Shown in pieces: positions 15,254 to 16,333 of a stretch of DNA of 29,365 nucleotides. This DNA is from a virus (taxonomy: Duplodnaviria; Heunggongvirae; Uroviricota; Caudoviricetes). Positions within the stretch are counted from its first letter, which is position 1. Every line of letters begins with the position of its first letter. Under the pieces are notes generated by a model. That model searched no databases. It was given only the letters and a program-made list of their open reading frames with translations, and had not been told where the DNA came from. The stretch lies in the IMG/VR virus record IMGVR_UViG_2693429774_000014, one strand, 5' to 3'. The position numbers and the translations under genes are program-made.

Positions 15254-15422
15254 CACTTATTTTCCCTCGCTCGCTTTTGCGGACCTTTTTTGTATCCGCA
15301 CCACGCCCGGCGCATACCAACCACAGAGCCTTTCGGGGGGAGCTTATGGAGTGGTCAGTGTGACTTTCTCTGTGGGCAGATCGCTCCCGGGCGTTGGCTC
15401 ACCCACCCAAAGGAACGTCACG

Positions 15423-15855
15423 ATGTTTGGTATTTTTGGTAAAAAAAGCCCGCAGAGCGGCAACGGAAATTAGAAAGTTTGAAAAACGCGATCTGGCACA
15501 GGTGGTGATTAACGCCGCATACCTGGTGGCCTGTGCAGATGGTGAATGTGAGGCTTCCTAGAAAGCGAAGATCGAACAGGTACTGCGTAATCAGCCTGCG
15601 CTGTACGCGTTTACGTCAGAAATTAATGCGATTAGCGCAACCATTATCGGTCAGCTGGATACGAACTTTAAAACTGGTCGTCGTGCGGCGTTACGTGAGA
15701 TCGAGGATGTGAAACACGATACGCGTGAAGCGGAAGATGTGCTGGATGTGGCGGTGGCCATTGCGGAGGCAGACGGCGAAATTGAGCCGGAAGAGCGCAA
15801 GGTGCTGGAAGAGATTGCCGGTGTTCTGGGTCTTCGTCTGGAGAATTACCTGTGA
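15423..15855 (+). pseudogene. TerB-like (tellurite-resistance TerB family) gene disrupted by a frameshift near an A-run (about 15441-15470) and an in-frame TAG
   Basis: ATG with AAAGGAA ribosome-binding site gives MFGIFGKKSPQSGNGN then stop. The +1 frame continues EIRKFEKRDLAQVVINAAYLVACADGECEAS, a TAG at 15544-15546, then KAKIEQVLRNQ...EADGEIEPEERKVLEEIAGVLGLRLENYL. The paired ADGE...EE..LGL pattern is TerB-like. Confidence 0.5.
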
Positions 15856-16019
15856 CGGTAAAACTGCGCCTGACTGTGGCTGCACTCCTGCTGTTTCTGG
15901 TGGTGATGGTGGATTTCACCAGCAGAATCATGTCGGTGCTGGCGGATGGGGTGCTGGTCTGCGGCATTATGGTATTGCTGTGGCCGGTGATAAAAAGAAA
16001 CAGCCTGCATAATGCTTGA
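15852..16019 (+). CDS. Small hydrophobic membrane protein (55 aa, GTG start overlapping the TerB-like stop)
   Basis: VTVKLRLTVAALLLFLVVMVDFTSRIMSVLADGVLVCGIMVLLWPVIKRNSLHNA has two hydrophobic segments; GTG overlaps the upstream stop, suggesting translational coupling. Under 60 aa, so absent from the track. Confidence 0.35.
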   Translation: MTVKLRLTVAALLLFLVVMVDFTSRIMSVLADGVLVCGIMVLLWPVIKRNSLHNA

Positions 16020-16220
16020 TTTTTTTGTTTGCTGTTTATTAAAAACACTTCTGCATGGTGAATCCCCCTGTGCGGTGGGGCAATCAGCAAGAAGGAATAT
16101 GGGGTAATCGCGGATTCAGGTGCTGATACTGAATTCACCGGGAGGCACCCGGCACCATGCTTTGCCACAAAAGTGTTATTTCTGTTTTTCTCAAACTATC
16201 ATCGTTATCCCTTTATTTTC

Positions 16221-16247
16221 GGCTGCGCATGGCGCGGCCTTTTTTTT
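16221..16247 (+). terminator. Rho-independent terminator upstream of the NanS-p-like gene
   Basis: GC-rich hairpin GGCTGCGC-ATG-GCGCGGCC followed by TTTTTTTT. Confidence 0.6.
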
Positions 16248-16333
16248 ACGACCAGCCACTGGCAGATGGTCATCCTGTGATTTGATTCCGCTTCCGGCTT
16301 TTTAACTCTGTTCCTCTACACGGGAGAAATTCG

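Follow-up and report, generated by a model that had tools for sequence, protein, structure and literature searches.

Our analysis indicates that the studied E. coli prophage carries a real moron gene, inactivated by a nonsense mutation and residing in an exchangeable cargo slot, and we regard this as the best explanation of the data, with a probability of about 0.9. The slot (1080 nt, positions 15254-16333 of the 29,365-nt stretch of DNA that was analysed, referred to below as the window) has a tRNA cluster to its left and a NanS-p-like esterase gene to its right, and is the late-operon moron slot of a lambdoid prophage, placed 3' of Q and the tRNAs and 5' of an sRNA gene, nanS-p and the lysis genes. 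It contains, in this order, a leader, a TerB-like reading frame (tciA), a 55-codon ORF (tciB), about 200 nt of non-coding sequence and an intrinsic terminator (Table 1). The elements described in an earlier note, made from the letters of the DNA, are all present, and that observation is confirmed. The roughly 200 nt that separate tciB from the terminator are an sRNA gene rather than a spacer. The dead tciA allele is real but ordinary, as it is known and already annotated in hundreds of E. coli genomes.

Table 1. Features of the cargo slot and its flanks (positions in the window)
Feature	Position	Strand	Basis and remarks
Q antiterminator gene	14098-14790		Pfam Phage_antiter_Q, 310 bits
Three-tRNA cluster (Ile2-CAT, Arg-TCG, Arg-TCT)	15004-15253	+	ARAGORN; Rfam tRNA matches; left flank
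tRNA, anticodon CAT	15004-15079		ARAGORN; PGAP name tRNA-Ile
tRNA Arg-TCG	15087-15163		ARAGORN; PGAP Arg
tRNA Arg-TCT	15177-15253		ARAGORN; PGAP Arg
Degenerate terminator-like hairpin	15269-15291	+	GCTCGC-TTTT-GCGGAC, then T run; 3' of last tRNA
tciA leader	15303-15422	+	AAGGAA Shine-Dalgarno at about 15409-15414; part of the tciAB cassette, homology to WGPS6 ends at 15302
tciA pseudogene (TerB family)	15423-15855	+	Alignments to intact alleles, Pfam TerB, phrog_632, 2JXU, PGAP; repaired frame from ATG 15423 to TGA 15853-15855, 143 aa
A7 homopolymer run (A6 in intact alleles with ATG start)	15441-15447	+	One extra A relative to JLK-2012 and O145 RM9872
tciB, intact 55-aa DUF3927 protein	15852-16019	+	GTG start overlaps tciA TGA (GTGA); GGAG 8 nt upstream
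STnc100/PasD (EcOnc13) family sRNA gene	16024-16247	+	Rfam, PasD2 alignment, terminator scan
NanS-p-like esterase gene, 616 aa	16334-18184	+	Pfam DUF1737 + SASA + DUF6645; right neighbour of the slot
Class II holin gene	18632-18838		PGAP; downstream of the esterase gene

The slot and its counterpart in Stx phages

The flanks of the slot are those of an Stx phage. Upstream of the tRNAs Pfam identifies genes for DUF968, RusA and the Q antiterminator, and the tRNA cluster that follows corresponds to ileZ-argN-argO of Stx2 phages, the tRNA region being 92% identical to that of the Stx2a phage WGPS6. Downstream of the cargo come STnc100, the nanS-p esterase gene and then a holin gene; the esterase gene is labelled 'SASA family carbohydrate esterase' by PGAP and resembles the esterase gene found 3' of stx in Stx phages (the PGAP names for the genes of the window were read from a record identical to it over 15254-16333). 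The window as a whole is a mosaic when compared with NZ_CP148579.1: the identity is 99.7% over 13744-22362, and elsewhere it is 96-97%, lower, or there is no megablast match.

In phage WGPS6 the gene order is Q, ileZ-argN-argO, stx2A, stx2B and esterase, and its homology to the window stops at 15302 and restarts at 16035. In the Stx1 phage 75/02 a stretch that begins 95 nt past the stxB stop matches positions 16039-16160 of the window. The Rfam family STnc100 is found directly 3' of the cargo in the Stx1, Stx2a, JLK-2012, O145 and 2009C-3378 loci, and in the Stx2a phage it begins 75 nt past stx2B, a distance that has been reported likewise (PMC12370729). The position of the slot after Q and pR'-tR' and before STnc100 and the nanS-p esterase gene is thus shared with stxAB of both Stx1- and Stx2-converting phages, and the tRNA cluster before the cargo is shared with the Stx2a phage, whereas the cargo itself is unrelated to tciAB. 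These alignments support the view that the slot is the stx-equivalent position. The toxin genes are absent from it: tblastn searches with StxA and StxB against the whole window gave a best E value of 0.25 and no similarity within 15254-16333, which rules out stx remnants in the window and bears out the earlier proposal of an stx-equivalent locus without toxin genes.

Different elements carry different cargo in this place. The occupants in related elements include stx1AB, stx2AB and intact tciAB; in O145 two extra small ORFs precede tciAB, in EPEC E2348/69 the slot holds a gene for a 248-aa hydrophobic (probably membrane) protein together with a DUF3927 gene, and in the PPompW phages ISEc20 is inserted after the first 87 nt. 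The hairpin 3' of the last tRNA was not called by the terminator scan of the window, and other phages possess a cleaner hairpin at the same position (GGCTCGC-TTTT-GCGGGCC-T7). In O145 RM9872 a similar hairpin element stands both before and after the extra two-ORF cassette. Judged by these comparisons, the hairpin is the recurring left junction of cargo cassettes. Because this junction recurs and a similar element flanks the extra O145 cassette on both sides, cassettes appear to have been swapped between conserved flanks. The stx slot is a general site of cassette exchange, bounded on the left by the terminator of the tRNA cluster and on the right by the sRNA gene, and the studied prophage is not an Stx phage stripped of its toxin genes but a relative with a different, partly dead cargo. 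The suggestion that the locus is an exchangeable moron site with a decayed cargo gene holds: exchange is seen across related elements, and the decay is confined to tciA, tciB being intact.

The tciA pseudogene and its alleles

When the reading frame of tciA is repaired, its product scores 45.3 bits against Pfam TerB (PF05099; E=1.2e-11, cut-off 24.4) and matches phrog_632 ("tellurite resistance", moron category) over residues 1-143 of 143 (E=7.2e-68), in agreement with the TerB-family assignment proposed before. Residues 15-137 align with residues 21-144 of the solved structure of Klebsiella TerB, 2JXU_A (phmmer, E=3.7e-7), which suggests the same fold. Full-length TciA homologues are present in 131 phage records, those of P1, D6, Erwinia jumbo phages and Vibrio and Pseudomonas phages included. 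Among the NCBIfam models only a sub-threshold match, to the TerB-like region of DjlA, was obtained. The possibility that TciA and TciB form a defence system was considered and rejected, as PADLOC gave a sub-threshold hit for TciA (E=0.007) and none for TciB. The same two genes stand in the same place in JLK-2012, where they are annotated as tciA and tciB. These names trace back to phage P1 and rest on homology only.

In TerB proteins each half of the domain has an acidic D-G-x5-E motif. The window still encodes the second of these two motifs (D117 G118 ... E124), and the Glu46 codon of the first one is a TAG. Comparison with intact TerB-like prophage genes, as had been advised, defines two lesions. 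Relative to the intact alleles of JLK-2012 and O145 RM9872, TCA GAG has become TCC TAG, with the stop codon at 15559-15561 on the + strand, and the homopolymer run near the start of the gene has one additional A, so an uninterrupted frame from the conserved ATG (MFG.F.KK) is not available. Glu46 is invariant among nine aligned homologues, including the copies of P1, an Erwinia jumbo phage and a Pseudomonas phage, down to 36% identity. Because the TAG replaces this residue, the product stops at 44-45 residues. Past the TAG the earliest canonical start in frame is GTG 15709, from which no more than the last 48 residues would be made. No suppressor tRNA, amber suppressors included, was found in the window by ARAGORN, and the statement that nothing suggests suppression of the TAG therefore stands. 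PGAP likewise annotates tciA as a "tellurite resistance TerB family protein" pseudogene with "internal stop" as the sole reason and without a frameshift call. The TAG alone is unambiguously inactivating: tciA of the window is a TerB member by descent, and its product cannot be one.

One could argue that sequencing or assembly went wrong at the frameshift and the TAG and that the gene is in fact intact, since a homopolymer length of A6 versus A7 is a classic type of error and some of the 8 records with A6 on a window-like haplotype may be errors either way. However, the exact 59-mer centred on the TAG occurs in 529 independent complete E. coli records, O157:H7 EDL933 among them, and the exact A7 61-mer in 556. 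Two complete-genome records are identical to the window over all 1080 bases, and in 485 records the identity is at least 99%. Additionally, the TAG is a substitution and not an indel, and the common A6 alleles of the O145/JLK type carry three linked SNPs within the same 61-mer. The reading by errors is thus effectively refuted, and we are left with lesions that exist in nature. Carriers of the TAG allele include O157:H7, O55:H7, O157:H16 and O103 hosts as well as isolates of dog, chicken and seawater origin.

The two lesions do not weigh the same. The earlier note had described the gene as broken by both; both are indeed present, but the frameshift taken by itself is annotated as an intact gene read from a TTG start, and the TAG lies 9 nt outside the interval 15440-15550 that had been suggested for inspection. 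From ATG 15423 the A7 allele encodes MFGIFGKKSPQSGNGN and then a stop, the frame being closed after 16 codons at 15471-15473. From the start chosen by PGAP, TTG 15427, which is 4 nt 3' of the ATG, the frame stays open across the A7. In strain 2009C-3378, where A7 stands together with GAG, the annotation gives the intact 142-aa protein WP_001303558.1 from the TTG. In complete E. coli records the 59-mer of the A7 lineage with GAG has 297 exact matches, the O145-type A6 60-mer 104, and the 60-mer with A6 on the window-like haplotype 8. All four combinations occur: A6 with GAG in C325, FORC_042, O145 RM9872 and JLK-2012, A7 with GAG in 2009C-3378, A6 with TAG in OkiPb01711, and A7 with TAG in the window. 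Therefore, the A-run and codon 46 are independent polymorphisms, shuffled by recombination or by changes of run length. The frameshift is a segregating A6/A7 polymorphism and counts for less than the TAG as evidence of decay, although, in view of the conserved N-terminus MFG.F.KK and the better-placed ATG, A7 would weaken expression.

It could be proposed that recoding still yields a functional TciA, with initiation at TTG 15427 (or a +1 or transcriptional slippage on the A7) followed by read-through of the TAG. The annotation as an intact 142-aa protein that A7 alleles receive when they have no TAG (297 records, and the exact protein on at least 1000 contigs) speaks for the first half of such a route, and the N-terminus in the TTG frame, MVFLVKK, is hydrophobic and then basic like MFGIFGKK. 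A functional product made in this way is nevertheless extremely unlikely. Restoration of the frame from the ATG would need a +1 shift, and the A run is only 7 nt long. Known +1 frameshift motifs combine a slow A-site codon with an upstream Shine-Dalgarno sequence, and at GGT AAA AAA AGC we found neither a slow A-site codon nor an upstream stimulator resembling a Shine-Dalgarno sequence. Efficient transcriptional slippage is known at runs longer than A7. The better-placed ATG would draw ribosomes into the 16-codon ORF, the window has no suppressor tRNA, and we know of no natural amber suppressor that would put Glu back at the TAG. Further decay is also visible in O111:H8, where the copy has the TAG together with an IS1203 insertion and an internal deletion, which shows that decay continues in some lineages.

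Another possibility is that the truncated products are functional together with TciB, either as the 44-aa N-terminal peptide or as the 48-aa C-terminal fragment (GTG 15709-15855), the latter restoring translational coupling to tciB. Gene callers list this 48-aa ORF on at least 992 contigs, it forms a family of its own, phrog_3920, and it ends at the GTGA overlap with tciB. Against this, each fragment retains one of the two D-G-x5-E motifs and about one third of the TerB fold, GTG 15709 is preceded only by GAGG at a poor spacing of 2 nt, and the fragment has no independent conservation signal. The family is most simply explained by gene callers annotating a common pseudogene, so phrog_3920 is probably just the C-terminal fragment of the tciA pseudogene, and we consider functional truncated products very unlikely.

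A different question is whether a real loss of tciA was neutral. The gene may have been inactivated repeatedly since it is costly or redundant in hosts with several lambdoid prophages, with the A-run serving as a mutable on/off site. Three kinds of lesion have been seen (TAG, A7, and IS1203 plus deletion), together with all four combinations of run length and codon 46, a median of 2-4 matching copies per genome, and the spread of the TAG allele over the serotypes and sources listed above. On the other hand, clonal STEC lineages dominate the counts, recombination between co-resident prophages can yield all four combinations, and only 8 records out of about 620 have A6 on the window-like background, which means that the run is not highly unstable. 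Thus adaptive loss is unlikely. Less likely still is that prophages switch tciA off repeatedly and on purpose, with the A6/A7 run as a mutable or recoding site, the A7 allele translated from the TTG or by slippage, and the TAG spread as the loss of TciA, with tciB and the sRNA kept, is advantageous where several such prophages are present. In complete E. coli genomes the TAG allele is at least as common as the open alleles, an observation that may point to selection for loss instead of neutral decay, although clonal oversampling of O157:H7 inflates the counts.

Leader, tciB and the sRNA gene

The leader of tciA is nearly identical in JLK-2012. A structured leader or riboswitch was considered for 15254-15422 and rejected, as Rfam gave no match at E<=1 beyond noise and the fold z-score was +0.64. 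A sigma-70 scan of the same interval found no promoter for tciA, and the nearest promoter-like sites on the + strand lie upstream of the tRNAs (14966-14994) and after Q (14777-14805). Because the leader contains no promoter-like site, the expression of tciA in the lysogen is uncertain.

Directly downstream of tciA and overlapping it stands the gene of a small membrane protein, in accordance with the coupled 55-aa hydrophobic ORF described before. TciB scores 60.4 bits against Pfam DUF3927 (cut-off 25), matches phrog_1470 ("TciB-like") with E=1.8e-29, and has two hydrophobic segments at approximately residues 5-21 and 26-47 of its hydropathy profile; the PGAP protein is WP_000216649.1. The adjacency of tciA and tciB is kept in P1, Erwinia phage ChrisDB, phage Fostie and JLK-2012. 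In Pseudomonas phage Zuri the place right after tciA is taken instead by a small "membrane protein" gene, the product of which aligns poorly with TciB.

The stretch that follows tciB matches Rfam STnc100 (RF02076) at 16024-16196 with 100.8 bits (cut-off 47). PasD2 of EPEC E2348/69, which was mapped by RNA-seq and northern blot to NC_011601 741157-741328 (Table S6, PMC8550237), places the 5' end of the sRNA at about position 16053 by homology. A promoter-like TTGATT (16016-16021) and TAAAAA (16040-16045) precede it, the candidate -35 box overlapping the tciB stop, and the terminator scan called an intrinsic terminator with a stem at 16221-16239 and T8 at 16240-16247. The window and the E2348/69 PasD2 locus have in common the promoter-like region, the 5' end GCAUGGUGAAUCC, the terminator GGCUGCGCAUGGCGCGGCC-U8 and the sequence up to the start of the esterase gene. 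The middle of the sRNA differs between the two, the PasD seed included: UGUGAG is absent, and the homologous position of the window reads CCCUUUAUUUUCG.

The 3' terminator hairpin of the STnc100 model itself is missing, as the alignment lacks model positions of about 175-200, and a PasD-type terminator stands 25 nt beyond the Rfam-aligned region. The fold z-score of the region is only -1.33, and the identity of the sRNA rests therefore on the Rfam match and the homology to PasD. According to a preprint, PasD and STnc100 are related (bioRxiv 10.64898/2026.05.13.724894). In sum, the gene of the window resembles PasD1/PasD2 (EcOnc13) and STnc100 in its Rfam match and, like PasD2, in the 5' end, promoter region, terminator and downstream sequence; it differs in having no UGUGAG seed and in the PasD-type terminator that replaces the Rfam 3' hairpin, and it is here predicted from sequence. 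Because of the STnc100/PasD homology and the shared terminator, the terminator is the 3' end of a separate sRNA gene and not that of the cargo. The earlier note was right that a terminator follows the cargo, and it had missed the gene to which this terminator belongs.

Proposed role and comparison with known systems

An intact TciA would be a 143-aa cytoplasmic protein of the TerB fold with two acidic D-G-x5-E motifs of the metal-binding type, and TciB would be translated by coupling to tciA through the GTGA overlap. By analogy with the TerB-family proteins of the ter system, the two may form a module associated with the inner membrane, which would be a dispensable accessory in the modulation of envelope stress, ion stress or superinfection and not an essential phage function. 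In the window a single G-to-T change in the Glu46 codon has created the TAG, leaving the second half of the TerB domain unmade and TciA null, and the change from A6 to A7 puts the ATG out of frame, with the weaker TTG start remaining. By contrast, tciB, the sRNA gene and all that lies 3' of them are intact. Ribosomes would be released at the TAG about 290 nt before tciB, which would then rely on its own GGAG and not on coupling.

RNA polymerase modified by Q is insensitive to terminators and to Rho-dependent polarity. Because of this, the nonsense mutation would have no costly polar effect on nanS-p or the lysis genes, and the dead allele would persist and spread with the surrounding module because late-gene expression would be unaffected. 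That tciA is so often inactivated mildly suggests that E. coli lysogens can do without this widespread phage TerB module or pay a cost for it, and the finding matters little beyond correct annotation. In the literature tciA and DUF3927 are mentioned at the level of annotation, the sole functional datum found being that tciA, tciB and tciC of P1 were non-essential in a CRISPRi screen (PMC10695390). [quoted passage not shown]

The closest relatives of the cassette are the tciA-tciB pairs of the lambdoid phage JLK-2012 (Marienburgvirus) and of E. coli O145/O157 prophages, which share with the window the gene order, the overlap, the leader and the position between tRNAs and STnc100/nanS-p. The repaired TciA is 94-96% identical to their proteins, and the difference is that these copies are intact (A6, GAG, 143 aa) whereas the window has A7 and TAG; JLK-2012 differs additionally in its tRNA set (Asn/Thr/Gly) and in a divergent 3' end of tciB. 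TciA of P1 is of equal length and 51% identical in the copy aligned (OP279344.1) or about 40% (AF234173.1). It shares the N-terminal MFG.F.KK and the D-G-x5-E motifs, tciB is the next gene and a tRNA gene adjoins the cassette as well, but P1 has a third small gene, tciC, its own annotated promoters and no Q-dependent late operon. TerB of the plasmid/chromosomal ter (tellurite resistance) operon, represented by 2JXU, belongs to the same fold family, judging from the alignment of residues 15-137 and the above-threshold match to PF05099. Contrastingly, TciA is a stand-alone phage gene product whose partner is a DUF3927 mini-membrane protein and not TerC, TerD or TerZ, and here it is truncated.

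Possible cassette junctions and cargo of the slot

In this prophage the slot between the tRNA cluster and the nanS-p-like esterase gene holds tciA, a TerB-family pseudogene, and tciB, a 55-aa DUF3927 gene. The terminator-like hairpin at its left end has a stem of only 4 bp plus a mismatch, whereas the Stx2a, PPompW and O145 elements have a clean 7-bp stem at the same element. Because a similar hairpin-like element is found on each side of the extra two-ORF cassette in the O145 locus (L008, about 760-791 and 1359-1388), our data suggests that this hairpin is a recombination junction for cargo cassettes.

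The slot of EPEC E2348/69 PP2 (L019, 1130-2117) is without a TerB gene and contains the gene of a 248-aa hydrophobic protein, probably a multi-pass membrane protein, followed by a DUF3927 (TciB-like) gene. The small membrane protein is paired there with another partner than the TerB protein. It was also observed that tRNA genes adjoin tciA-tciB cassettes in unrelated phages: a tRNA lies just 3' of tciC in P1 (L014, 401-1185), and a tRNA-Cys just 5' of tciA in Erwinia phage ChrisDB (L015, 179-1009).

Minor features of the prophage, in window coordinates
Feature	Position	Strand	Remark
DicF sRNA, full-length match	4403-4454	-	76.7 bits
sok antitoxin RNA	11534-11708	+	Rfam, 114 bits vs cut-off 59
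Promoter-like site and hairpin with T run	14777-14886	+	right after Q
Terminator-like hairpin, degenerate	15269-15291		3' of last tRNA
STnc100/PasD (EcOnc13) family sRNA gene	16024-16247	+	directly 3' of tciB
Fragmentary pseudo-ORF, 'hypothetical protein'	16214-16357	-	PGAP, identical records

Probable annotation artefacts and mosaicism

The C-terminal tciA fragment 3' of the TAG (15709-15855), which is a gene call on at least 992 contigs, coincides exactly with the 48-aa PHROG family phrog_3920 (E=9.5e-36). Annotation of the common tciA pseudogene has probably produced this family as an artefact. The minus-strand pseudo-ORF, with an internal stop and both ends missing, spans the terminator and the nanS-p start, and it is likely an annotation remnant.

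The record NZ_CP148579.1 matches the target region (15254-16333) at 100%, and the whole window (1-29365) is mosaic relative to it: identity is 99.7% over 13744-22362, while the rest shows 96-97%, lower identity or no megablast match. In NZ_CP148579.1, frameshifts are present in the integrase gene and in a DUF977 gene.

RNA genes and their known counterparts

The DicF match, together with the dicB/ydfB/ydfC region annotated in a related record, identifies the early region as Qin/DicB-type. The sok RNA presumably belongs to a hokD/sok-type toxin-antitoxin locus; a related prophage has a PGAP-annotated hokD at the equivalent position.

The promoter-like sequence after Q (TTGCAA-17-TATATT) is followed about 75 nt 3' by a strong hairpin and a T run (AAAACCCGCCCACAAGCGGGTTTTTTT). 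This site is the expected place of a pR'-tR' short transcript, a predicted RNA whose analogues would be lambda 6S or StxS; its Rfam matches were all sub-threshold (isrK, isrJ, leader peptides).

The promoter-like -35 box of the STnc100/PasD-family sRNA gene (TTGATT, 16016-16021) overlaps the tciB stop codon. This sRNA has its 5' end and terminator in common with EPEC PasD2, but the seed regions of the two differ.
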